Source: Acidobacteriota bacterium
GTDB taxonomy: Bacteria; Acidobacteriota; Blastocatellia; RBC074
Direction: 5' to 3'
DNA length: 64,000 bases
NCBI GenBank assembly: GCA_043718445.1
Contig: JAYSVR010000026.1
Coordinates: forward strand, 2,900-66,899
Part shown: positions 1-12,348 of the stretch, piece after piece
How the letters are laid out: each line of letters opens with the position of its first letter
Numbering within the stretch: position 1 is the first letter of the stretch
Translations under genes and position numbers: made by a program
The notes under the pieces: model-generated
Told to the model about the DNA's origin: nothing
The model's database searches: none
The model's input: only the letters and a program-made list of their open reading frames with translations

Positions 1-526
1 CAAGTTGTGCGGTACTCGCGCGCGCGGCGGTCAATTGTTGGCGTAATTCCTGTTCAGAGCTTTGAGGCGCTGACAACGCAGCACGCATTTGTGTTACTTC
101 GCTTTGCAGAGATACGAGCTTATAACCCAGCCCGCCGCCGCCAACGGCAATCAGTGTGCAGGCAGCACCTAAAGCATAGCCTCGTACCGGATAGCTCGCT
201 CTAAAAAAATCGCTGACCGATTGCAGCCAGCCAGGTTGTGACGACTCAACGGATTCTGCCGTGCTATCAAGCTGGCGCTGAAGAGCTTGCGCGAAGTGCA
301 ATTTTTGCCGGTGTTCGGGGGCGGATAAAAAATGCCGTTCGAACTGTAAGCGTTCCGCCGAAGACAGCGTCTGGCGAACATAAGCGTCGGTCAATTCGTC
401 TTCAGCGATCAATAACTGCTCGAATACTTCATCGTCGAGCATGATCTTTTGCTCAATTAACAATTGCTCTTTTTCAGCCAGCGTGCCGAGCAAGTACCGC
501 TTCAAGTTATTTTCGTCCCTATACAT
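1..526 (-). CDS. Membrane-anchored anti-sigma factor. Gene starts at ATG 524-526 and runs off the left window edge, so the C-terminus is missing.
   Basis: Manual translation of the minus strand gives MYRDENNLKRYLLGTLAEKEQLLIEQKIMLDDEVFEQLLIAEDELTDAYVRQTLSSAERLQFERHFL... followed by a hydrophobic segment GYALGAACTLIAVGGGGLGY. It lies 90 bp downstream of an ECF sigma gene on the same strand. It is not in the ORF track because no stop codon falls inside the window. Confidence 0.5.
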   Translation of the reverse strand, partial: MYRDENNLKRYLLGTLAEKEQLLIEQKIMLDDEVFEQLLIAEDELTDAYVRQTLSSAERLQFERHFLSAPEHRQKLHFAQALQRQLDSTAESVESSQPGWLQSVSDFFRASYPVRGYALGAACTLIAVGGGGLGYKLVSLQSEVTQMRAALSAPQSSEQELRQQLTAARASTAQL

Positions 527-619
527 TGGGCCTCTCTCCCGTCTTTTTTATGCGCTGGGGATAACGCTTCCATTGATTATTGCAATAAACGGCAATCCAT
601 TTCATGCCCCAACTCATGA

Positions 620-1174
620 CTATGATTGTGCCAGGCAATTCAGCAGGCATTCCTGCAACGTCGCGCGCATGCGAAAGACCTTGATTTTCAAGGCGTTGTC
701 CGTCAAACCGAACTCCACCGCCAAGGCTTTGCGCCGGTCAATTTTTGCCTGTTTTTCTTCGCGGTAATATTCCAGCAAAAGGCGGCGTTGCGGCAACGGC
801 AGGTTAGCCATACATCGATTCAAGCATTGGTCTGCGCGCTCTTTATCCTCGGCGGAACCGGGGTCAGGTGGCGATTCGGGTGGGGCAAGTGTGCTTTTAC
901 GCCGCCATTCGAGAAAGACGCGGTTTGCGACGCCAAAAAAATAAAGGGAAGGATCGCCTACGTAATCAGCCGCGAGGTCTGCTACTTTTTTACTTACGCG
1001 ATCAATGGTTTCATCGGCCAACTCTTCCGCTTCCCAACTGCCACGTGAGGCAAAAACCCTGATTAGCTTGCGACGAATTTCTTCGTATTTTTTCCCCGCG
1101 CACTCAGGATCAGGATCGAGCCAGTTGAGCAAGCGGCGCAATGTGTCGGCGTCTAATTTCCAGGGGGTCTTCAT
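620..1174 (-). CDS. ECF-type RNA polymerase sigma factor (sigma-70 regions 2 and 4)
   Basis: 184-aa ORF. A region-2-like segment (WEAEELADETIDRV..YFFGVANRVFLEWRR) and a region-4 HTH (LPLPQRRLLLEYY..LAVEFGLTDNALKIKVFRMRATL) are present. It is followed by a cognate anti-sigma gene. Confidence 0.7.
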   Translation of the reverse strand: MKTPWKLDADTLRRLLNWLDPDPECAGKKYEEIRRKLIRVFASRGSWEAEELADETIDRVSKKVADLAADYVGDPSLYFFGVANRVFLEWRRKSTLAPPESPPDPGSAEDKERADQCLNRCMANLPLPQRRLLLEYYREEKQAKIDRRKALAVEFGLTDNALKIKVFRMRATLQECLLNCLAQS

Positions 1175-1599
1175 CGAGGCGAATTATTCACTATATCCCT
1201 GTGAACGCCAAGCGCTCAGGGCGTTTTTGAAGCGGCAGGCCGGTATTCCAATCTGGACATCAACAAGCAGCGGTGAGTCACACTTGAGCAGTGCCGCGAT
1301 CACTATTTTAAGCCTGCATCGGCTTTCAAAGGGCTGAGACATCTTACGAATGCCGCTCACACATAACGGCCACGCATGCACCAAGTAATAGGCGGGTTAA
1401 GTTTAACTGGTAAGCTCATCAACTATTTTCAATCAGTAACTCATCAAGAATATGCACTTTACCCAACGGGTGTATCGCCTGCAAGATTCATGATTGACTT
1501 GAGGGACGGGCGAATTGTGCTGTTGGCTCCGATGTTGCCGCAGGTAGACCATAACTTACACGATCTCTCAATTGCCTTCGGGATGAATCATTTGAGCAA

Positions 1600-4500
1600 T
1601 TAAAAGCTATGGCCGAGGTATTCACCCTGTAACACGAAGGCTGCCCAGTGGAAAGGCGGGTTGCCTTGCCGCCACATTTCGAGTTGAGCTTCGCGCAAGG
1701 CGGCGGCGGGGGTGAGTTTTTCGTGGAAAAGCCGCCGGTAAAAGGCCTTCATAAATTCCGCCGTAGCCTCGTCATTCACCTTCCATAAGCTCGCCATCAC
1801 ACGCGGAGCGCCCGCGTACATAAAGCCGCGCGTCAAGGCGACCAGCCCTTCGCCCTTGATGTCTTTGCCGAGCGCCGTGTCGCAGGCGCTCAGTACGATC
1901 AACTCAGCGGGCAGCTTCAAATTGTAAATGTCGTGCAAGCGCAGAAAGCCGTCTTGCGGTTGTCCGTGCATATCGAACTGCGAAAGCGCTACGCCCGAAA
2001 GCGCGGGGCGTTGGCTGTCGAGCAGCCCATGCGTAGCGAAATGGATGATTCGATATTGGCTCAACTCGTTTCCCGTCACGAACCCACGATTGACCGCGAA
2101 GCCTTGCACGAGATGAGCGGAGTTATCCGACGCGACCGCGAGAATGGCTTCGGCTTCTTCGCGCGTACCAGGCAAGCGGGACAGCCCACCTTCGCGGTTA
2201 GTCGCGGGGCGAGTTTTTTTGTTTGCGCCGAAACGATCATCATCTTTGCCAAAGACCGGATCAGCCAGGATTGCCAGACTTTTTTGCGCTGACTTGCGCT
2301 GACTGGTTTCGCTGCGCACCAAAGCCAGCGTCGAGGCCGACGGCAAACTGATAATCTCGTGTTGAACAAGCAGCGGTTGGCTTAACTGTCTGGTGGCCTC
2401 TGAGGGTTCAGGCAAAGCTGCGAACGGCACGTATTGCAATGCCCCTTCGCTGACCACGATCAATCGTTTTTTGCCAAGTCGCGCAGCCAGCGGGGTCAAC
2501 ACCATACGGCTCAATTCCTCCGCCGCCAGTGCGTATTGCGCGTCGTTGTCAGCAAAGCGCGCGCGACGTTGCTTGAGCGATTCATTCGCTACGGGCTGGC
2601 GCGCGACGAGCAGTTCATAAACGCGACGCGCAGCCTTTTCGATCTGCGCACGCGCGGGTAACTCAAAACTAGCAATCTCATGTTTGGTTACGGCCCAGAC
2701 GTAGCTGCGCTGTTCGCCAAGCGCGTATTCCAACAAGAGGGTGTCGTCATCCAGCACCGAGTTTTGAATCGCGGCGAGGTCGAGCGGCTGGGGTTGGGTC
2801 AACGCTGCGTATCGCGGACTGCGCGCGCGCATCTGCGCCTGTACGTCATCAAATTGCGCGGTCAACGCAGAGATTTCCGTCTCAACCGCCGCCAATTCCC
2901 CTTCTTTCGGCGTGCCGCCATTCAGCCGCATCAAGCGGTCTGCCTTGCCGTTGACTTGCTGCCGCAAGGCGCGCTCGCGCTGCATTAATTCTGGATCAAC
3001 ACTTTGACGCAAATTGGCGCTCGCTTCTGTCAACAACTCCAACATGCTGCGCGCCCTTGACCGCTCGCTCGCCGCCAGCGCCAGCGCGTCGTAACCTTGT
3101 GACGGCTGCTGCCGATGCAGGTTCATCAGCACCTCAATCTGCAATTGGTGATACTGGTAAATCGAAGCCGAGTATGAGGTACGCAACTCCTGGCTGAAGA
3201 CTTTGGCGCGGAGCGATTCGCTCAACGCCAGTGCGGCTTCAATCTGCGCGCGCGCTGCTAGTAAGTCCGCTCGATCAAGTTCAACCAGCGCCAGATGGTA
3301 ACGCGTCTGCGATTCGCCGAAACGGTCACTCACCACTTGATTGAGCGCCAGCGCCTGCCGGTAAAATTCGAGCGCCTGTTCCTGCTGGTTTAGCGCACGA
3401 TACGCATCCCCTAAGTCGTTAAGCAGGTAAGCTTCGCCTTGCCGATTGCCGACTTTCTGAGAGAGTAGCAGCGCCTTTTGATAAGTAGAGAGAGCTTGCT
3501 GCTGTTCTCCTAACGCGGCATAGGCGCGCCCACTGTTGATGAGTGCGTAGGACTCATACCGTTGAAGATCAAACGTCCGAAGGAGCGGCAAAGCTTGCTG
3601 GTAATAATTCAGCGCCTTCAGGTGATCGCCCATGGTGTAATGCGCCTCACCAATTTGTGCGAGTACTGCTGCTACTCCTTGGTTGAAGCCTTTCACTTGC
3701 CACAACTTCAGCACGTTTTCGTAAGTGTTCAAAGCACGCTGGGACTCGCCCAGTGCAAGGTAGTCATAAGCTGAATTTCCAGAGGTTGTAGCTTCCCACA
3801 GTTGGTTACCCATCATTTTGAAGAGCAAGGCGGCTTGTGTATAGCAATTCAGCGCTTCCTGCTTCTCACCTATCCGCGAATTAAGTTGCCCCAACGCCGT
3901 AAGGGTTAAAGCTTCACCACGTCGGTGCCCAGTCTCGCGCCACAAAGCGAGTGAGCGTGCATAATAGTCAAAAGCTCCTTGCGCATTGCCGATGTCAGAG
4001 TGTGTATAACCAAAATTTAACAAGATGGTTGCGAACAAGCGGCGATCATTAAGCACATGGCAAAGTGCCAATGCTTGCTCGAGAAATTTGAGCGCCTGCT
4101 CCTTCTCGTCTCTCCAGTCGTAATAAGCTCCCATATTGTTGAGCGCACGCGCTTCCCCCATTTTATCACCAGCAATACGACTCAAATGCAGCGCCTGCGT
4201 GGCGCTTTCCAACGCCTGTTGAGGCTGGGCCAAGTAAAGATAGACGTTGCTCATTTGGTTGAGCGTCTCGGCATGGCTGCGGGCATCCTCGTGCCTGACG
4301 TTGAGCGTGAGCGCGCGTTGATAAAAGCTGATCGCCGTTGGTAGCTCACCTAATGAATAATAGGTCGCTCCGATCCCACGCAGCGCATAAATCATACGCC
4401 GCTGATCGCCGAGTGAGTGCCAAAGGGTGAGTGCAGTTTGATATTTCTGAATCGCTTGACGGCTGGCCTGCGCTTCCCAGGTTTCGTATAGCTGCTCCGC

Positions 4501-5085
4501 TACGGCCTCAGTCATTTCCGCCGCGATCAGCTGCCGATCTTGCGCTGTAGCCTGACGCAATTCTGCGATTTTCACAGAATAGGCTCCAGCCTGCGCCACT
4601 GTTTCAAGCGAGCGCACTGTGAGCAGGTAGGTACCAGAAACCTCAATCAGCGCCGAAAGTGATCGTGTATGAACATCACGGCAGTTCAGGTTACGTACTT
4701 GTCGGCCACGTGGAGTTGAAAGCGCAAGGTTAACGGCAATCCCCAGCGGTTCGATGGTCAACCTCAAATACTGCCCGGCTTTCAGTGCGAGGAGATAGGT
4801 ATGCTTGTCGGTTTGCCCAAGTGCGCGTTGCACCGGTTGAGCCGGGACAAGAAACAAAAGTTCCAGAGGGCGTTCAGTAGTTGCCCTGGGCAAGGATTGA
4901 CAGCGCACAGGGGTACGAAGCAAAGCCAGCAAACAAAGCAGGCTTATGAATAGCGCTAACCGGCAAAAAATCTTGCGAGGGGAGGAGGTCACTATCGCAG
5001 TAGTGTCCTCCCCTTGCCGCACCTCGGCACAACACGGTAATGCATAATAGTGTAGGCGATATTTAGCACTGCTTGTCATTACCAA
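1600..5085 (-). CDS. TPR-repeat protein with C-terminal CHAT (caspase-HetF-like) protease domain. It has an N-terminal hydrophobic anchor or signal.
   Basis: 1161-aa ORF. There are about 12 TPR-like repeats (recurring ALNNMGAYY / AL..Y.QAL motifs, aa 200-650). The C-terminus has the CHAT His/Cys dyad motifs IIHFATHG and LIVLSACDTALG. A hydrophobic stretch LALFISLLCLLALL lies near the N-terminus. The start overlaps the stop of the upstream C11 peptidase gene. Confidence 0.85.
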   Translation of the reverse strand: MVMTSSAKYRLHYYALPCCAEVRQGEDTTAIVTSSPRKIFCRLALFISLLCLLALLRTPVRCQSLPRATTERPLELLFLVPAQPVQRALGQTDKHTYLLALKAGQYLRLTIEPLGIAVNLALSTPRGRQVRNLNCRDVHTRSLSALIEVSGTYLLTVRSLETVAQAGAYSVKIAELRQATAQDRQLIAAEMTEAVAEQLYETWEAQASRQAIQKYQTALTLWHSLGDQRRMIYALRGIGATYYSLGELPTAISFYQRALTLNVRHEDARSHAETLNQMSNVYLYLAQPQQALESATQALHLSRIAGDKMGEARALNNMGAYYDWRDEKEQALKFLEQALALCHVLNDRRLFATILLNFGYTHSDIGNAQGAFDYYARSLALWRETGHRRGEALTLTALGQLNSRIGEKQEALNCYTQAALLFKMMGNQLWEATTSGNSAYDYLALGESQRALNTYENVLKLWQVKGFNQGVAAVLAQIGEAHYTMGDHLKALNYYQQALPLLRTFDLQRYESYALINSGRAYAALGEQQQALSTYQKALLLSQKVGNRQGEAYLLNDLGDAYRALNQQEQALEFYRQALALNQVVSDRFGESQTRYHLALVELDRADLLAARAQIEAALALSESLRAKVFSQELRTSYSASIYQYHQLQIEVLMNLHRQQPSQGYDALALAASERSRARSMLELLTEASANLRQSVDPELMQRERALRQQVNGKADRLMRLNGGTPKEGELAAVETEISALTAQFDDVQAQMRARSPRYAALTQPQPLDLAAIQNSVLDDDTLLLEYALGEQRSYVWAVTKHEIASFELPARAQIEKAARRVYELLVARQPVANESLKQRRARFADNDAQYALAAEELSRMVLTPLAARLGKKRLIVVSEGALQYVPFAALPEPSEATRQLSQPLLVQHEIISLPSASTLALVRSETSQRKSAQKSLAILADPVFGKDDDRFGANKKTRPATNREGGLSRLPGTREEAEAILAVASDNSAHLVQGFAVNRGFVTGNELSQYRIIHFATHGLLDSQRPALSGVALSQFDMHGQPQDGFLRLHDIYNLKLPAELIVLSACDTALGKDIKGEGLVALTRGFMYAGAPRVMASLWKVNDEATAEFMKAFYRRLFHEKLTPAAALREAQLEMWRQGNPPFHWAAFVLQGEYLGHSF

Positions 5086-6593
5086 GTCTCTCTAAAAAAC
5101 TCTACGGGCGGATTTTTCACTTTTGCCGCCATATCGCTGCCGCCTTTACTGCCAGGCTCAAGGAAGCGCACCCCAACCCGCGTATCATCTGTTGGGATGA
5201 AGCACAGCGGTGTCTTTCCTTTATGCCGCTCCAGATCCTCATTGCGAATATCTCGGCGCGAAGCCTTCAGGTATTCTTCAATGAAGTTACCCCAACCTGT
5301 CTGCCTGGAAAATTTGAGTTTCTTGTACTCGACTAATTCTTCAAACTTCTCTATCTTTTGCGTGTCTGCCGCCCAGGGTAAATAGATCGAAACCCCGTGC
5401 GAGTGTTGAAATGCCGCGCCGTTGAAACAAGAACTCAACACAAATTTGGGAATATTTTTTTCCGAGTTGCCATCAATGACGTCATTGACAGATCGGCATG
5501 CCTCCTGAATTTTTTCGCTGGCTCCTACTCTGATCAACTGAGCGCAAAAATCCCAGAGGTCTACATAACGCTCGGCGTGGTAAGACTGGGCGTACCAATG
5601 CGCCAGTAAGATTGCATTGAGGGTAGTCTCTTGTTTGAGGGCGGCCTCTTGTTTGAGCGCTTCGGTTAAAGCCTCCTGCAACCCTTTCACAGCTTTGACT
5701 AGAGCGGGGCTTTGCTTCAAGTCACAGACTGCTTGGTCTACCGATACGCCACCCACCTCGTAATCCGAGTAATAGCGCACATACTTGTTTACTAACGAGC
5801 ACGCAAGCTTAACCGTGTCTGCCTCGTTATCACTCGCCTCATTCTGACTGGTATCGCTTGTACTGACTGCCTCGTTCAAGGTCTCCAAAATGCGGTGATA
5901 AGGCCAACCCGTACTCAATTCAAACCCTTCGGCTCCGATCACTAAGTCAACAAAGCCTGACAACTCGTGCGCCACTTCCGCCATGCTCATCAGGCAACTA
6001 TCCATCAACACAATATCTATCTTGCGTGGGAGCTTTTGGAACACCGCGCGCAAGTCGGAAATCGACAGTGAGGCTGCCGGGTTGTTACTTTTCAAAAAAG
6101 GGCCGACGGCTCCACTCCCGTGCCCCGAAAGAATCACCAATTGGCCCGTGCCTTGCGCCGAATTCGATTCGATGCTCGATACTAGAAACGCTTCCAACAC
6201 ATCCGGGTTGGAAGCGCTCATCAGTTCTGCTTTGGTGAGAGTGCGCACGGACAGCTTGCCATCGACTGCGTTTTTTTTCTTAGCCGATTGCTGGTGAGGC
6301 TGGGGCAGGATGGGAACTTTTTCACTGGGTTTAAGTTCTCCATCTTTATCCCCAATCGGGGAGGAAATAAGTCCTGTTTGCCCAGTTGCCAGATCGTGCT
6401 TTCTGATCGTGTAGCGGCTGGGTAGAGTGTCTTTGGCGCTGGAATGAAATTGGGCGATTACCTTAACTCCTTCGGCGGTGCCGACGCGTTGCATTTCTTT
6501 GAGCGAGAAAATGCATTCTTCGCTCAGGCTGTTGTCGGCGGCCATGTAAACCATGACATTCCAATTCTTGTTTTCGGACTTGAGGGATTTCAT
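5079..6593 (-). CDS. Peptidase C11 (clostripain-like) family cysteine protease, with no signal peptide
   Basis: NWNVMVYMAADNSLSEE resembles the clostripain N-terminal motif. The catalytic His lies in VILSGHGSG and the Cys in IVLMDSCLMS. The track ORF extends to 6830, but AAAGGAGAG precedes ATG at 6591-6593 (MKSLKSENK), making that the likely start. Confidence 0.75.
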   Translation of the reverse strand: MKSLKSENKNWNVMVYMAADNSLSEECIFSLKEMQRVGTAEGVKVIAQFHSSAKDTLPSRYTIRKHDLATGQTGLISSPIGDKDGELKPSEKVPILPQPHQQSAKKKNAVDGKLSVRTLTKAELMSASNPDVLEAFLVSSIESNSAQGTGQLVILSGHGSGAVGPFLKSNNPAASLSISDLRAVFQKLPRKIDIVLMDSCLMSMAEVAHELSGFVDLVIGAEGFELSTGWPYHRILETLNEAVSTSDTSQNEASDNEADTVKLACSLVNKYVRYYSDYEVGGVSVDQAVCDLKQSPALVKAVKGLQEALTEALKQEAALKQETTLNAILLAHWYAQSYHAERYVDLWDFCAQLIRVGASEKIQEACRSVNDVIDGNSEKNIPKFVLSSCFNGAAFQHSHGVSIYLPWAADTQKIEKFEELVEYKKLKFSRQTGWGNFIEEYLKASRRDIRNEDLERHKGKTPLCFIPTDDTRVGVRFLEPGSKGGSDMAAKVKNPPVEFFRETW

Positions 6594-7047
6594 CTTTAGC
6601 TCTCCTTTTAAATAGTTCAGGTTTGGTTGAATGCGGCGGGCTGACCACGCTTGATCAGCCGCAACCGTGATATGGGTGAACGGCAGGACAATGACTGAAT
6701 CAATGCCCCAAAGGATGAATCGCAATGAACGCAGCGCGCGCTCGACGAAAAGTAGCTCATTAGCATTGAGCCAGACGTAAACTGCTGTTTGGATAAGGCT
6801 GCCTCGGATTCGGCGGGCGCAAAATAGCACGGAGGTGGCGGTGGGTCTACTGCTCGCGGCACATTACAAATCTTTGTAGCTAATTCGCTCCGATAATTCA
6901 GACCAACGCGAAGACAGCATTTCAGCCTCTGCTGCTTGAGCCATTGATCTAAGCCACGGCTGAGACAATACTGTTATGGCAGTTTCAAAACAGCTTTCCT
7001 GTCAGGAGAGTTCGCCTTTACTACCACCAACCTTCATCGAGGAAACC

Positions 7048-8790
7048 ATGAACCGTCTTTTTGTCCCGCTGGCCGCCGCGTTATTGATTTTTGCCACCTT
7101 CGCGCAAAGCGGAGCTTCATCGGCATCACAAAATTCCCAACGCCCCAACATCATCGTGATTATGTCGGATGACATGGGCTATTCAGATTTGGGTTGTTAT
7201 GGCGGAGAAATCAATACGCCAAATCTGGATGCGTTGGCGAAAGGCGGTGTGCGCTTCACGCAGTTTTACAACACGGCGCGTTGTTGCCCTACGCGGGCGA
7301 GCTTGCTGACGGGTTTGTATCCGCATCAGGCCGGCATCGGACACATGATGGAAGACAAAGGCCACGACGGTTATCGCGGCGATTTGAATGAACAGTGCGT
7401 GACGATGGCCGAGGCGTTGCGTCCGGCGAGCTATGCGACTTATGCCGTAGGAAAATGGCACGTCACCAAAGCCGTCAACCCCAAGTCAGAAGCTGAAAAA
7501 CACAACTGGCCGATGCAACGCGGCTTTGATCGTTTTTATGGCACGATCACGGGCGGCGGCAGCTTTTGGGATCCGTCCACGCTGACGCGCGACAACACCA
7601 TGACGACGATTTATGCCGACGCGGAATATCAACCAAAAGAACAGTTCTATTACACCGACGCGCTCAGCGATAACGCAGTGAAATTCATCGGCGAGAATCA
7701 GGCGACGAAACCGTTTTTCATGTATCTGACTTACACCGCCGCGCACTGGCCGATGCACGCGCGCGAACGTGACATTGCGAAATACAAAGGCAAGTACGAT
7801 CTGGGCTACGCGCCCATGCGCAAGGCGCGTTACGAACGCATGAAGAAGATGGGTTTGATTGATCCGCGTTGGGCGCTGTCGCCGCCAGCAGGCGAGTGGG
7901 ACAAAGTGAAAGACAAAGCGTGGGAAGCGCGCACGATGGAAGTTTACGCCGCGATGATTGACTCGATGGATCAAGGCATCGGGCGCATCATCGCCGAACT
8001 CAAACGGCGCGGACAGTTCGACAATACGTTGATCTTGTTTATGCAAGACAACGGCGCTTGTGCCGAAGTCACCGGACGCAATCTGGCGGGGCCAAATGCG
8101 CCGAACTCATATCACGCGCGGCCTGACCAAGCGGTTTATCCCGCCGTAGCCAAAGACGCGCAGCATTATTTCGCTTCGATGCCCAAACAGACACGTGACG
8201 GACGCGCAGTGATTTTAGGGCCGAACGTATTGGCAGGGCCTGATGATACGTTTATCGCTTATGGGCAAGGCTGGGCGAACGCGAGCAATACGCCGTTTCG
8301 TGAATACAAACACTGGAATCACGAAGGCGGAATCTCTTCGCCATTGATTGCGCACTGGCCGAAAGGCATTGCGACTAAACAACACAATCAATACATCAAA
8401 ACGCCGAGCCACTTGATTGACATCATGGCGACCGTCGTTGACGTAGGCGCAGCGAAGTATCCGACCGAACACAAAGGCCAACAGATTCAGCCGATGGAAG
8501 GCGTGAGTTTGCGTCCGGCGTTCACGGGCAAAACCATTCAACGCGCGCAACCGATCTTTTGGGAACACGAAGGCAATCGCGCGATTCGTGCCGGGCAATG
8601 GAAGCTCGTCGCCAAAGAAAACCAGCCGTGGGAACTTTATGACATCGCCGCCGACCGCAGCGAGATGAATAACCTCGCTGATAAACAGCCTGAGCAAGTG
8701 AAAGAGCTGTCGGCGCAATGGGACGTATGGGCTGCGCGGGCGAAGGTGTTGCCGTTGGGCACGTGGCGTGCGCAACCGACACGGCGTTGA
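7048..8790 (+). CDS. Arylsulfatase (Cys-type sulfatase, formylglycine motif CCPTR)
   Basis: SDDMGYSDLGCYGG...ARCCPTRASLLTG matches the canonical sulfatase signature. A signal peptide MNRLFVPLAAALLIFATFAQS is present. The track start is 6976, but GAGGAA precedes ATG at 7048. Confidence 0.85.
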   Translation: MNRLFVPLAAALLIFATFAQSGASSASQNSQRPNIIVIMSDDMGYSDLGCYGGEINTPNLDALAKGGVRFTQFYNTARCCPTRASLLTGLYPHQAGIGHMMEDKGHDGYRGDLNEQCVTMAEALRPASYATYAVGKWHVTKAVNPKSEAEKHNWPMQRGFDRFYGTITGGGSFWDPSTLTRDNTMTTIYADAEYQPKEQFYYTDALSDNAVKFIGENQATKPFFMYLTYTAAHWPMHARERDIAKYKGKYDLGYAPMRKARYERMKKMGLIDPRWALSPPAGEWDKVKDKAWEARTMEVYAAMIDSMDQGIGRIIAELKRRGQFDNTLILFMQDNGACAEVTGRNLAGPNAPNSYHARPDQAVYPAVAKDAQHYFASMPKQTRDGRAVILGPNVLAGPDDTFIAYGQGWANASNTPFREYKHWNHEGGISSPLIAHWPKGIATKQHNQYIKTPSHLIDIMATVVDVGAAKYPTEHKGQQIQPMEGVSLRPAFTGKTIQRAQPIFWEHEGNRAIRAGQWKLVAKENQPWELYDIAADRSEMNNLADKQPEQVKELSAQWDVWAARAKVLPLGTWRAQPTRR

Positions 8791-8994
8791 GCCTTGCGTT
8801 TTTTCAGCAACGGCGTGAAGCTGCGCGCCACATCAGTAACAAAGTCTTACTTCTAAATTCGGTAGTTAACCAAGTCCCTGGCAGTTGCTTCTGGCAATCA
8901 ACTGTCAGGAAAGTAACAACTCGCTGGCCGACGAAAAGTCGCACGGCGGCTTCGTGCTTTCACCAATAACTCAATTGCTATCAGAGGAGTCCCA

Positions 8995-11900
8995 ATGCTT
9001 AAACGCAATATCGTCGTCACGCTGTTGCTCGCTGTTCTGTTCATCGCGCCCTTGCGCGCGCAAACGCCTTCGGGCGAAATCAGCGGCGTCGTCAGCGATC
9101 AAACCGCCGCCGCCGTCGCGGGCGTCAAGGTGTCGCTTGTCAACCTTGCCACCAACGCGACGCGCGAAGTGCAAACCAATGATTCAGGCTTGTATGCCTT
9201 CCCCGCTTTGTCGCCAGCCGTTTATACGTTAAAGGCTGAGAAGCAGGGCTTTCGCGCCGTCGAACGCAAAAACATAGAAGTGCTGGTCGGCAGCGCTAAC
9301 CGCATTGACCTCGCGCTCGAAGTCGGCGAACTCACCAACGTAGTCGAAATCGCAGGCGGCGCTCCGATACTGCAAAGCGAAAACGCGAGCATCGGCACGG
9401 TCATCGAGAATCGTTCCATCGTCGAGTTGCCATTGAATGGCCGTAACTATTTGCAACTGACTTCGCTGATTCCCGGCGCGACGACCAACGGCCCGGCTTC
9501 GGCGCAAGGGCAACAACGCATGGGCGGACAGCGCAACAGCTTTGCGTTAAACGTCAGCGGACAGCGCATCCATTTCAACCATTATTCGCTCGACGGCATT
9601 GAGAATACCGACCTGAATTTCAACAGCTATATGCTGCTGCCCTCGATTGATGCGATTCAGGAATTCAAGGTCGAGGCGGGTTTATTCGACGCCGAATATG
9701 GCCGCGCGATTGCGCAAATCAACGTCTCGACCAAATCGGGCGGCAATCAATTTCACGGGACGCTGTTTGAGTTTTTGCGCAACTCGTCACTTGATGCGAA
9801 AAACTATTTTGATCGGGCTGATCGTCCGATTCCGCCGTTCAAACGCAATCAATACGGTGCGACAGTGGGCGGCCCAGTTTGGATTCCCAAAGTTTTCAAT
9901 GGCAAAGACCGTTTGTTTTTTCTGTTCAACTGGGAAGGCTTGCGCGAACGCAAAGCTCTGACGCAAACCATTAACGTACCGCTCGCCGCTGAACGCCTCG
10001 GCGATTTCTCGGCAACGGGTGTGACGATTTATGACCCGCGTACGCGCGTCTTCGACGCGGCGGGCAACGTGACGAGTGCGCCTACGCCGTTTGCGGGCAA
10101 TCGCATTCCCGACAATCGCATTCATCCCGTTGTTAAAAAGCTGCTCGCGTTTTACCCGAATCCGCAAAACGGCAATCGCGTAGGCAATTATCTCAACGAC
10201 GAAAGCAAACGCATTGACGCCGATCAATACACCTATCGCATTGATTTCACTGAAAGCTCGAATTCGTCGTGGTTCTTCCGTCACAGCATTTCGCACGAAC
10301 TCGGTCTTGATCCCTATCCGATCCCGAACATGGGCATCAACACCGACACCGATGTGCAGCAAGGCGTCATCGCCAATACGCGAACGATTGGTTCGAGCAA
10401 GGTGAATGACATGCGCATCGGCCTGAGCCGCTTGGTCAACGGTCACATCTCGCCGCGCGCCAACGTGCAAAACGTAGTGAAAGAACTCGGCATCAACATC
10501 CCCAGCGACAACCCTTTGTATTGGGGCGTGCCGAATATCGGCATCACCGGCATCTCGGGTTTGGGCGAAGAGAGCGACGCGCCGTTTATCAATTACGACA
10601 CGACGTTTCAGTTGATAGACAACTTTTCGTGGACGTTCGGCAAGCATTCGGCCAAGTTCGGCGGCGAATGGCGGCGCGTGCGTTACAACCAGATCGGCGG
10701 TGTCGTCACGCGCGGACGGTTCAATTTCGACGGACGCTATACGCAATTACCGCAATTGCTCAATCAGCCCGCTCCTCCGGCGGCACAGCGCGGCGGCGCT
10801 CCGTTGGCTGATTTCCTGCTCGGACATTTCAACAATGCCGAAGGCCAGATCGGCGCACCAGTCGCCAACTTCCGCTCGAACTATTTCGCGTTGTATGCGC
10901 AGGACAACTGGAAGATTACGCCCAAGCTCACGTTGAATTACGGCGTGCGGTGGGAAAACGACCAGCCCTTTCGCGATAAACACGATGCCATCGTCAACAT
11001 TGATTTTCGTTGGGACAATTCGATTGAGCCAACTTATGTGCGTGCCGGCACGGGCGATCCATATGGCGGCAGCGTGCCGTTTCGTCTCGCGTCTGACATC
11101 AAGTATGTGCGCGACGGACGCTTCGGTTCGCGCGCCTATCGCAACGACCTGAACGACATCGCGCCGCGTTTGGGCATCGCTTATCAGATCAATTCAAAGA
11201 CAGTGTTGCGCACGGGCGCGGGCATCTATTACGTACGCGACATCGGCAATGCGGTGTTCGACATCGTGCGCAATGCGCCTTTCACCGTTCGTCGCAACGA
11301 ACCGGCGGAATCGTTCCGGCCCAATTTGAGTTTCGAGCAACCGTTTGCGCGCACCGGAGCGCCGACGTTTATTTTGATCAATCAGTTCGATGAGCCTTCG
11401 TCGTATGTGGCGCAATGGTCGTTCGGCTTTCAGCGCGAAATCACCAGCGACATGACGGCTGAGATCACTTACTTCGGTTCGGCGGGCATACACTTGCGAC
11501 GCTTGCAAAGTTACAACAACCCCGAACCGAGCCAGTTGCCCAACACGAACAACGCGCGACCGTTTCCCAAATTCGGCAGCTTTCAGGTGATGAATGCGCC
11601 GAGCCATTCGAGCTATCACGCGCTGTATATGAAAGCCCAGCGGCGTTTCTCGAACGGCCTGACGTTTATCAGTTCGTTCGCGTGGGGCAAATCAATTGAT
11701 AACGGCAGCGGCGTGCGCACTTCGGTGGGCGATTCGTTGACGCCGTCGAACAATTACAACCTGCAACTCGAACGCGGCTTGTCGGCTTTCGATTTTCGGC
11801 GTCGCTCAACGACTTCAGGCTTGTGGGCTTTGCCGATTGGCAAAGGTCAAAAGCTGAATCTCGAAAACAAAGTGGCGAACTTCCTGATTGGCGGCTGGCA

Positions 11901-12348
11901 GTTGGGCGGCATCTTTACGTTGCAAGACGGCTTCCCGTTCACGGTGCTGTGCGGGCCGGGCAACATTCAAAACGGCGGCGGCGTTTGTTATCCCGACTCG
12001 ACCGGAATCAATCCGAATCTGTCGCGCGATCAACAAACCCGTACGCGCTTTTTCAACCTCGACGCTTATGTTGATCGCATTCCGGCGACGGGCAATTTCC
12101 GCTACGGTACGACCGGACGCAATTCGGTCACCGGGCCGGGCATCATCAGTTTGGATGCTTCGCTCAACAAGAAGTTCAACTTCAGCGAATCGAAGTATCT
12201 TGAATTCCGCACCGAAGTTTTCAACGCACCCAATCATCCGATTTGGAATCCGCCGGGCAATCAATTGCGTACGCCGAATGCAGGCGTAATCACCAGCACC
12301 AAGATTGATTCGCGGCAGCTTCAGTTCGGTTTGAAGTTGGTTTTCTGA
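8995..12348 (+). CDS. TonB-dependent receptor-like outer-membrane protein with an N-terminal carboxypeptidase-regulatory-like (CarboxypepD_reg) domain
   Basis: 1117-aa ORF. A signal peptide is followed by ISGVVSDQTAAAVAGVKVSLVNLATNATREVQTNDSGLYAF (Cna-B/CarboxypepD_reg-like), then a plug/barrel. It ends in a beta-barrel terminal LQFGLKLVF. Confidence 0.8.
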   Translation: MLKRNIVVTLLLAVLFIAPLRAQTPSGEISGVVSDQTAAAVAGVKVSLVNLATNATREVQTNDSGLYAFPALSPAVYTLKAEKQGFRAVERKNIEVLVGSANRIDLALEVGELTNVVEIAGGAPILQSENASIGTVIENRSIVELPLNGRNYLQLTSLIPGATTNGPASAQGQQRMGGQRNSFALNVSGQRIHFNHYSLDGIENTDLNFNSYMLLPSIDAIQEFKVEAGLFDAEYGRAIAQINVSTKSGGNQFHGTLFEFLRNSSLDAKNYFDRADRPIPPFKRNQYGATVGGPVWIPKVFNGKDRLFFLFNWEGLRERKALTQTINVPLAAERLGDFSATGVTIYDPRTRVFDAAGNVTSAPTPFAGNRIPDNRIHPVVKKLLAFYPNPQNGNRVGNYLNDESKRIDADQYTYRIDFTESSNSSWFFRHSISHELGLDPYPIPNMGINTDTDVQQGVIANTRTIGSSKVNDMRIGLSRLVNGHISPRANVQNVVKELGINIPSDNPLYWGVPNIGITGISGLGEESDAPFINYDTTFQLIDNFSWTFGKHSAKFGGEWRRVRYNQIGGVVTRGRFNFDGRYTQLPQLLNQPAPPAAQRGGAPLADFLLGHFNNAEGQIGAPVANFRSNYFALYAQDNWKITPKLTLNYGVRWENDQPFRDKHDAIVNIDFRWDNSIEPTYVRAGTGDPYGGSVPFRLASDIKYVRDGRFGSRAYRNDLNDIAPRLGIAYQINSKTVLRTGAGIYYVRDIGNAVFDIVRNAPFTVRRNEPAESFRPNLSFEQPFARTGAPTFILINQFDEPSSYVAQWSFGFQREITSDMTAEITYFGSAGIHLRRLQSYNNPEPSQLPNTNNARPFPKFGSFQVMNAPSHSSYHALYMKAQRRFSNGLTFISSFAWGKSIDNGSGVRTSVGDSLTPSNNYNLQLERGLSAFDFRRRSTTSGLWALPIGKGQKLNLENKVANFLIGGWQLGGIFTLQDGFPFTVLCGPGNIQNGGGVCYPDSTGINPNLSRDQQTRTRFFNLDAYVDRIPATGNFRYGTTGRNSVTGPGIISLDASLNKKFNFSESKYLEFRTEVFNAPNHPIWNPPGNQLRTPNAGVITSTKIDSRQLQFGLKLVF

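Follow-up and report, generated by a model that had tools for sequence, protein, structure and literature searches.

The first 6,830 positions of a 64,000-nucleotide stretch of an Acidobacteriota genome (GCA_043718445.1, contig JAYSVR010000026.1; hereafter the window, meaning this whole stretch) hold four co-oriented genes, all on the minus strand. They encode a cysteine peptidase of the clostripain family (C11), a TPR-CHAT protease, a divergent extracytoplasmic function (ECF)-type sigma factor and a single-pass membrane anti-sigma factor. We found that this cassette is a genuine, widely conserved functional unit of Acidobacteriota, self-contained and vertically conserved. By analogy, it is most likely the split counterpart of an anti-sigma factor of the DdvA type. 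DdvA of Myxococcus xanthus is a transmembrane anti-sigma factor with a periplasmic TPR-CHAT part, whose location was shown by cryo-EM (electron microscopy), and DdvS is an ECF sigma factor (PMC11506125). For the cassette we propose a protease-gated release of the ECF-type sigma factor, in which CHAT would cut the anti-sigma factor in trans with C11 as a cytoplasmic partner, and we rate the chances of this proposal as about even. No description of a cassette of C11, TPR-CHAT, sigma and anti-sigma was found in the literature, and CHAT is not mentioned in the main text of the ECF classification of Casas-Pastor 2021.

Conservation of the cassette across genomes

An alignment scan with C11 against one genome per species (185,579 species) gave 345 relatives, and the best 80 loci were analysed. 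Apart from a few odd record titles, these best 80 of the 345 loci belong to Acidobacteriota (Blastocatellia, Pyrinomonadaceae, Vicinamibacteria and Bryobacteraceae). Evaluable loci, with at least 6.5 kb of DNA downstream of C11, numbered 55. TPR-CHAT directly follows C11 in 50 of them by tblastn, and in about 52 when loci L042 and L063 are added. The sigma and anti-sigma genes were detected in 40 by tblastn and in six more by hidden Markov models (HMMs), which brings the loci with all four genes to 46 of 55, down to about 30% C11 identity. A sequence-only reading of the window had named conservation of the neighbourhood as one check on this gene association, and the outcome was strongly positive.

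Clustering of the flanking open reading frames (ORFs) recovered the four cassette families in 80, 77, 59 and 57 loci and no fifth conserved family, the next genuine family being present in 12 loci. Clusters of 43, 33 and 17 loci were discarded as antisense shadow ORFs within the CHAT and C11 genes. Between the four proteins, pairwise distances are correlated (r = 0.51–0.80; permutation maximum 0.17), most strongly for C11 and CHAT (0.80), sigma and anti-sigma (0.75), and CHAT and anti-sigma (0.72). The C11 and CHAT genes overlap as ATGA in L003, L004, L005 and L059 and are separated by 20–300 bp in most homologues outside the source clade. More than 50 loci keep the sigma/anti-sigma pairing, the two genes being 12–92 nt apart, and in the window the anti-sigma gene begins 93 nt past the sigma stop.

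The odd titles are those of metagenome-assembled genomes (MAGs) recorded as Heliomicrobium, Heliobacteriaceae and Chlorobium (L003, L016, L018, L019, L021, L057, L080, L081), probably a taxonomy or binning error. Paralogous expansion was also observed: a single contig may carry two cassettes, complete or partial, C11 genes may stand in tandem, and one MAG may contain several cassettes; examples are loci L031, L039 and L045 and the MAGs F1F2.bin.491, SMAG_U2109 and SRP272529_co1_149.

Fused and split forms of anti-sigma and TPR-CHAT

An alignment scan of metagenome contigs with the sigma factor gave 80 loci of 44–54% sigma identity, 33 of them too short and 47 evaluable. TPR-CHAT is linked to the sigma family in all 47. 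The anti-sigma domain, a transmembrane (TM) helix and TPR-CHAT are fused in one protein in 12 loci; they are split and co-directional in 25 and split and convergent in 6, and other linked arrangements are found in 4. A fused locus has the sigma gene and then one protein of about 1200 residues, in which an anti-sigma domain of the same family, a TM helix and TPRs are joined to a CHAT domain whose dyad is intact. The fused form also occurs in L085 and L089, and the sigma factor preceding the fused protein is 50% identical to that of the window. A search with the 105-residue anti-sigma domain gave 7,037 matches at E ≤ 1e-3, and six of the best 150 representative clusters have the fused architecture (Pfam CHAT E = 1e-62 to 1e-70). 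Such a Rosetta-stone fusion in the same families argues that the separate anti-sigma factor and TPR-CHAT protease of the window work together. Control of the anti-sigma factor by CHAT, one of the hypotheses of the sequence-only reading, thereby gains independent support.

C11 follows the form of the locus. It is present in none of the 12 fused loci versus 11 of the 14 loci that are split or linked in another way and extend far enough to judge, the three without being L134, L136 and L143. By arrangement, the co-directional split loci comprise 6 with C11, 3 without and 16 undeterminable, the convergent ones 2 with and 4 undeterminable, and the other linked arrangements 3 with. All eight fused loci with room carry a protein, here called X, of 270–340 residues in one or two copies right after the CHAT gene (L085:12296-13192; L089:8595-9617 and 9673-10680; L096; L103, two copies; L124; L130; L150; L159). 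H55, D126 and C288 of X are invariant. X has no match in Pfam, NCBIfam, PADLOC or PDB, and a hidden homology of X to C11 was rejected (hhalign probability 0.1%).

The four genes and their products

The sequence-only reading had described four co-oriented genes, a C11 peptidase without a signal whose stop overlaps the start of a TPR-CHAT gene with an N-terminal hydrophobic segment, a gap of 425 bp, and an ECF sigma factor with a single-pass anti-sigma factor. This layout is borne out. The gene boundaries had to be corrected: C11 starts at 6593 and not at 6830, and the anti-sigma gene is cut by the window edge.

The TPR-CHAT gene (1600..5079, minus strand) is overlapped by the C11 stop codon TAA (5081–5079), either through an ATG at 5079 (TAATG, 1159 residues, the public gene call) or through a TTG at 5085 (7 nt, 1161 residues). 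The caspase-like CHAT domain (1621..2523, minus strand; Pfam match to residues 855–1155 of the 1161-residue form) scores 231.5 bits for PF12770 against a cutoff of 24 (E = 1.8e-68). Its catalytic residues His1017 (nt 2029–2031, FATHG) and Cys1066 (nt 1882–1884, LSACDT) are invariant in 100% of 63 sequences. There are many TPR matches (Pfam TPR_12, TPR_1 and TPR_2), and the TPR region extends over 3100..4512 on the minus strand, about residues 190–660; its DNA carries direct repeats with a period of 120 nt (family D1). A hydrophobic segment preceded by basic residues, resembling a signal anchor or signal peptide, occupies residues 37–58 (4906..4971, minus strand). Nearly all homologues have a basic stretch and a hydrophobic segment at the N-terminus, many with a following Cys as in lipoproteins; a 19-residue N-terminal window has a mean hydropathy above 1.6 in 46 of 62, and the remaining ones score 1.0–1.6. 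The fused relatives place TPR-CHAT C-terminal of a TM helix, which itself comes after the cytoplasmic anti-sigma domain. From the N-terminal signal or anchor, the topology of the fused relatives and the periplasmic location in DdvA, we predict that the body of TPR-CHAT is outside the cytoplasm, the protein being exported or membrane-anchored.

The source protein has a 36-residue N-terminal tail before the hydrophobic segment, weakly conserved in its closest relatives, and most homologues outside the source clade have a short N-region. No significant match of the CHAT domain to DdvA, Csx29, separase or any other CHAT structure was obtained against all PDB sequences by phmmer and profile search. 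Residues about 70–180 (4540-4872, minus strand), between the signal anchor and the TPRs, are predicted to be rich in beta strands; this region has no Pfam match, and about half of the homologues lack it.

The C11 peptidase (5079..6593, minus strand) has 504 residues and is exactly the public gene call. An ORF of 583 residues from 6830 was rejected as an over-extension in favour of the ATG at 6593, which the public gene call and the ribosome-binding site support: a strong Shine-Dalgarno sequence, AAAGGAGAG, precedes this ATG. The protein scores 89.9 bits for Pfam Peptidase_C11 (PF03415; cutoff 25.8), and the family profile matches the clostripain structure 9cip (E = 4.5e-23). The catalytic residues are His158 (nt 6120–6122) and Cys200 (nt 5994–5996), with Asp198 two residues N-terminal of the Cys; among 78 sequences H158 is conserved in 97%, C200 in 100% and D198 in 100%. 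All 77 homologues lack a hydrophobic segment at the N-terminus and open with the first strand of the caspase fold, so the peptidase is predicted to be cytoplasmic. In PmC11, an Asp two residues before the Cys sets the specificity for basic residues. Asp198 shares this position with the clostripain family, and we predict a specificity for basic residues for C11 as well. The C-terminal tail (5079-5260, minus strand; residues about 445–504) contains a near-invariant VKNPP motif (K493, N494, P495, P496) and R476, and the Pfam C11 match does not extend into this tail.

The sigma gene (620..1174, minus strand) encodes 184 residues. The protein has no Pfam match and scores 32.8 bits for TIGR02937, below the NCBIfam cutoff of 42.9. 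A family profile of 51 orthologues matches R. sphaeroides RpoE (2q1z) at E = 2.4e-5 over both domains (profile positions 21–169), and among 60 relatives 40 match Sigma70_r4_2 and 5 match Sigma70_r2. In an AlphaFold2 model with a predicted local distance difference test (pLDDT) score of 83.2, the top 16 Foldseek matches in the PDB are all ECF sigma factors except one WhiG (sigma-28-type) complex; they include SigE, SigL and SigH of Mycobacterium tuberculosis, E. coli sigmaE, AlgU, SigW and CnrH, at a probability of 0.95–1.0. The scores of these matches are modest (E = 3.5e-3 to 0.2; whole-chain template modelling score about 0.35, and about 0.7 for the sigma4 domain alone). From the profile, the model and the relatives, we accept the protein as a divergent ECF-type sigma factor. 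Where an NCBI name is given for a relative, it reads 'hypothetical protein', and most relatives are without a precomputed Pfam domain. Four cysteines, C117, C121, C176 and C180 (codons 824–826, 812–814, 647–649 and 635–637), are invariant in alignments of 51 and of 60 sequences. They form two CxxxC pairs, one where the first sigma4 helix begins and the other where the recognition helix ends, and could be a Zn or redox site within the DNA-binding domain.

The window contains residues 1–175 of the anti-sigma factor (1..526, minus strand), and the rest is beyond its edge. The full 326-residue protein was read from the public contig (L001:1306-2286), which is 100% identical across the overlap. Its AlphaFold2 model (pLDDT 83.5) has an N-terminal helical bundle at residues 2–94 (pLDDT about 95), one TM helix, a coiled coil at 156–197 and a beta-sandwich at 211–325. 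The TM helix covers about residues 112–133 (nt 128–193), and the model draws a continuous helix over 115–151. The zf-HC2 family is matched by 27 of 41 relatives (best E = 7e-7), and the window protein, at 18.1 bits, stays below the cutoff of 22.2. Alignments of 45 and of 41 sequences showed, in the anti-sigma domain (residues 1–94), no conserved set of Cys/His ligands such as the H-x3-C-x2-C motif of the zinc-binding anti-sigma (ZAS) subgroup. No fold match surfaced for the N-terminal domain, the lists being dominated by matches of the beta-sandwich, which resembles generic Ig-like, CopC and cupredoxin-like folds. We accept the protein, from alignments and model, as a non-zinc class I-like anti-sigma factor. 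This partner without the usual zinc motif stands beside a sigma factor with four cysteines.

Arg223 is the only invariant or nearly invariant polar residue of the periplasmic domain. It belongs to the motif L-T/S-P-G-x-x-R and is in a low-confidence loop of the model, and for its near-invariance and this position Arg223 is a candidate cleavage site. L055 and L029 have no sigma gene, and a membrane protein of 630–650 residues is encoded upstream of C11-CHAT (L055:7874-9766; L029:7949-9907). Its C-terminal domain is homologous to the periplasmic Ig-like domain of the anti-sigma factor (HMM E = 5e-27 and 2e-32). The Ig-like domain, present there without sigma, therefore looks like a module partnering with C11-CHAT. 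The rest of the L055/L029 protein consists of an unannotated cytoplasmic part of about 480 residues and a TM helix.

The CHAT-sigma gap of 425 bp (1175..1599, minus strand) is the longest of the family, relatives having 35–320 bp or overlapping genes, and about 350 bp of it is without a counterpart in the closest relatives. A plus-strand ORF of 75 residues in the gap (1376-1603) is called as a gene in a public contig; the region is not alignable in relatives and the ORF was rejected for want of other support. A conserved, housekeeping-like promoter element, TTGGCG-17 nt-AATAAT (1211..1183, minus strand), directly precedes sigma in the gap. Its end is only 9 nt from the ATG and a Shine-Dalgarno sequence is absent, which suggests a leaderless sigma mRNA or one with a very short leader for the source clade; most relatives have TACAAT or TAGAAT some 55 nt ahead of the sigma start. 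Members of the Pyrinomonadaceae clade have TTGACA-N17/18-TAGTGT 180–250 nt upstream of C11. A promoter and terminator scan gave counts no higher than those of shuffled sequence. The imperfect palindrome GCGGCTGATCAAGCGTGGTCAGCCCGC (6636..6662, minus strand), in the leader or promoter region of C11 at 43–69 nt upstream of its start, is kept among the closest relatives in L002 and L005 and partly in L003. It might act as an operator or form a hairpin in the leader; as a structured RNA it was rejected (folding energy z = -1.1, not significant). A scan of 1-9000 with Rfam gave no RNA family match.

After the anti-sigma gene follows a convergent sulfatase gene on the public contig L001. The cassette of the source genome is flanked by two sulfatase genes (window 6976-12348, plus strand; L001:2638-4227). 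A CarboxypepD_reg/TonB-type outer-membrane barrel and a LysR regulator also adjoin it, and a flavoprotein is another neighbour. The sulfatase, TonB-type and LysR flanks are not kept in other genomes, and there is no second copy of the cassette in the 64-kb window.

Proposed release of the sigma factor and its alternatives

In the proposed mechanism, the sigma factor would be held at the membrane by the single-pass anti-sigma factor, whose anti-sigma domain would face the cytoplasm and whose coiled coil and Ig/CopC-like domain the periplasm, while the TPR array of the extracytoplasmic TPR-CHAT protease would sense a signal. The His-Cys domain of CHAT would then cut the periplasmic part of the anti-sigma factor in trans, as a site-1-type cleavage. 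A housekeeping site-2 protease, the cytoplasmic C11 or both would next clear away the truncated anti-sigma factor and so free the sigma factor. C11 might remove the sigma-bound anti-sigma domain or might act on the CHAT tail. The analysis shows the gene content, its conservation, the fusions, the catalytic residues, and the predicted topology and folds; each cut, the signal, the regulon and the exact part played by C11 are inferred. A two-compartment relay, in which CHAT and C11 would cut the same anti-sigma factor on opposite faces of the membrane and release the Cys-rich sigma factor without DegS, RseP or ClpXP, seems unlikely to us.

The proposal follows the logic suggested for DdvA, where autoproteolysis by CHAT is proposed to be followed by RseP and then by cytosolic proteases (PMC11506125). 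Both systems have an ECF-type sigma factor beside a single-pass anti-sigma factor and an extracytoplasmic TPR-CHAT with an intact His-Cys dyad (in the cassette, by prediction), and in both periplasmic CHAT cleavage would lead through intramembrane and cytosolic proteolysis to a free sigma factor. The fused relatives of the cassette family share the exact domain order of DdvA. In the cassette, however, TPR-CHAT is a separate protein and the anti-sigma factor carries a small periplasmic Ig/CopC-like domain instead; the anti-sigma domain is without zinc ligands; there is a cytoplasmic C11 in addition; the hosts are Acidobacteriota, whereas DdvA-like proteins are reported only in Myxococcota and one Comamonas (PMC11506125); and no CBASS (cyclic oligonucleotide-based antiphage signalling system) or CRISPR island is adjacent (PADLOC; the neighbours in the window are metabolic). 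The separate proteins and the absence of a zinc site, of detectable CHAT sequence similarity and of a defence island argue that the cassette is not a member of the DdvA family.

Regulated intramembrane proteolysis of E. coli RseA proceeds through DegS, then RseP and then ClpXP. The cassette resembles it in its single-pass anti-sigma factor with a cytoplasmic sigma-binding and a periplasmic domain, and in the successive cuts that we would expect on the two sides of the membrane, but caspase-fold cysteine proteases would replace DegS and possibly ClpXP. The C11 of the cassette belongs to the same fold family as clostripain, PmC11 and fragipain and, like them, has a His-Cys dyad with an Asp two positions ahead of the catalytic Cys; it differs from them in having no signal peptide (0 of 77) and in its conserved C-terminal VKNPP tail. 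To our knowledge, the characterised C11 members are all secreted.

Several observations weigh against the proposed release. The anti-sigma factor is a putative substrate of CHAT, and the export call for TPR-CHAT rests on hydrophobicity heuristics and analogy. The parallel to DdvA is architectural only, since the CHAT domain has no detectable sequence similarity to DdvA. A few C11-CHAT pairs stand beside other regulators, namely a histidine kinase with a LuxR-type regulator (L022) and an OmpR-type protein (L070). A bipartite search upstream of C11 or sigma found no ECF-type autoregulatory promoter (GGAAC ... CGT-like) and only housekeeping-like elements. The weakest link is the role of C11: none of the 12 fused loci has the gene and 3 of the 14 split loci with sufficient flanking DNA lack it, so sigma release can in general do without it.

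The pair of C11 and TPR-CHAT could also be the output of an ordinary envelope-stress switch, a regulon for turnover, quality control or nutrient scavenging and not a means of sigma release. ECF sigma factors commonly neighbour their own target genes. The sigma/anti-sigma and C11-CHAT genes seem to be separate transcription units with promoter-like elements of their own, the sigma pair is inverted relative to C11-CHAT in L013, L014, L054, L135 and L167, and the cassette of the window is found among sulfatase and TonB-type transporter genes. We nevertheless think this explanation rather improbable. TPR-CHAT is fused to the anti-sigma factor in 12 of 47 loci, and a protein physically fused in this way would be part of the sensor and not of the output; the element upstream of C11 (TTGACA-N17-TAGTGT) is housekeeping-like and not ECF; and the periplasmic domain of the anti-sigma factor accompanies C11-CHAT even where sigma is absent. 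Alternatively, C11 might serve the maturation of CHAT by trimming its N-tail of 36–40 residues or by processing a precursor in the cytoplasm, with translational coupling giving a 1:1 supply. The stop-start overlap in the source clade (TAATG, and ATGA in L003, L004, L005 and L059), the highest mirror-tree correlation for C11 and CHAT (r = 0.80), the occurrence of C11 only with a separate CHAT and never with the fused form, and the weak conservation of the clade-specific cytoplasmic N-tail would all fit. We consider it quite unlikely, as a short N-region and gaps of 20–300 bp prevail outside the source clade, three split loci have no C11 and there is no precedent. A chance adjacency of unrelated genes, for which the 425-bp gap of the window is the only argument, is practically excluded and already refuted by the same order in 46 of 55 genome loci and by the TPR-CHAT linkage of 47 of 47 sigma-seeded loci.

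The two proteases might instead act in defence, as an abortive-infection-type, phage-triggered caspase-like cascade in which CHAT activates C11 or the reverse, and which cleaves cellular targets together with the sigma regulator. CHAT proteases with sigma factors in type III CRISPR and a CHAT-to-caspase cascade are precedents (bioRxiv 10.1101/2023.06.23.546230; PMC10028731), DdvA/DdvS controls a defence island, and several paralogous cassettes occur in one genome or contig (L031, L039, L045). In Haliangium ochraceum a cytoplasmic SAVED-CHAT, activated by cA3 (cyclic triadenylate) via SAVED, acts on PCaspase, a C14 caspase, and this on PCc-sigma (bioRxiv 10.1101/2023.06.23.546230). That cluster likewise combines two different clan-CD proteases with a sigma factor, but the cassette has no SAVED (TPR and CHAT only, by Pfam), its second protease is a C11, and its two proteases are predicted in different compartments. 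Type III-E craspase was the paradigm of the sequence-only reading, and the likeness is that TPR-CHAT is coupled to an ECF-like sigma factor and its inhibitor, with proteolysis of the inhibitor as the proposed switch. Craspase, however, is cytoplasmic and RNA-guided, whereas the CHAT of the cassette is predicted to be exported and the inhibitor is a membrane anti-sigma factor. The match to CAS_III-E_sigma reaches 18 bits against a cutoff of 100, the CHAT of the window does not match Csx29, there is no cas-like ORF in the adjacent 16 kb, and CRISPR and defence matches are absent, which leaves DdvA (PMC11506125) as the closer model. PADLOC gave no match for C11, sigma and anti-sigma and a generic TPR match only; SAVED, CARF and cas components are lacking; and the flanks vary between loci and are metabolic in the window. 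The role in conflict that had been suggested is thus unsupported. C11 and CHAT are moreover predicted on opposite sides of the membrane, where neither protease would readily activate the other, which also makes the direct C11-CHAT proteolytic cascade of the sequence-only reading unlikely. Altogether we regard a defence role as very improbable.

DdvA is the only characterised anti-sigma factor with a TPR-CHAT protease. If protease-gated release as proposed here is correct, a DdvA-like logic would be common in Acidobacteriota, a dominant and poorly studied soil phylum, where its fused and split forms would be interchangeable. As a natural pair of protease and substrate acting in trans, the split form would make the unproven step of DdvA, cleavage of the anti-sigma factor by CHAT, directly testable with separate proteins. 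The cassette also offers an initial functional context for cytoplasmic C11 peptidases, and its large family of four-Cys sigma factors, mostly without a Pfam domain, could escape regulatory censuses. A two-compartment relay, if true, would be a new route of transmembrane signalling based on caspase-fold proteases and widespread in Acidobacteriota.

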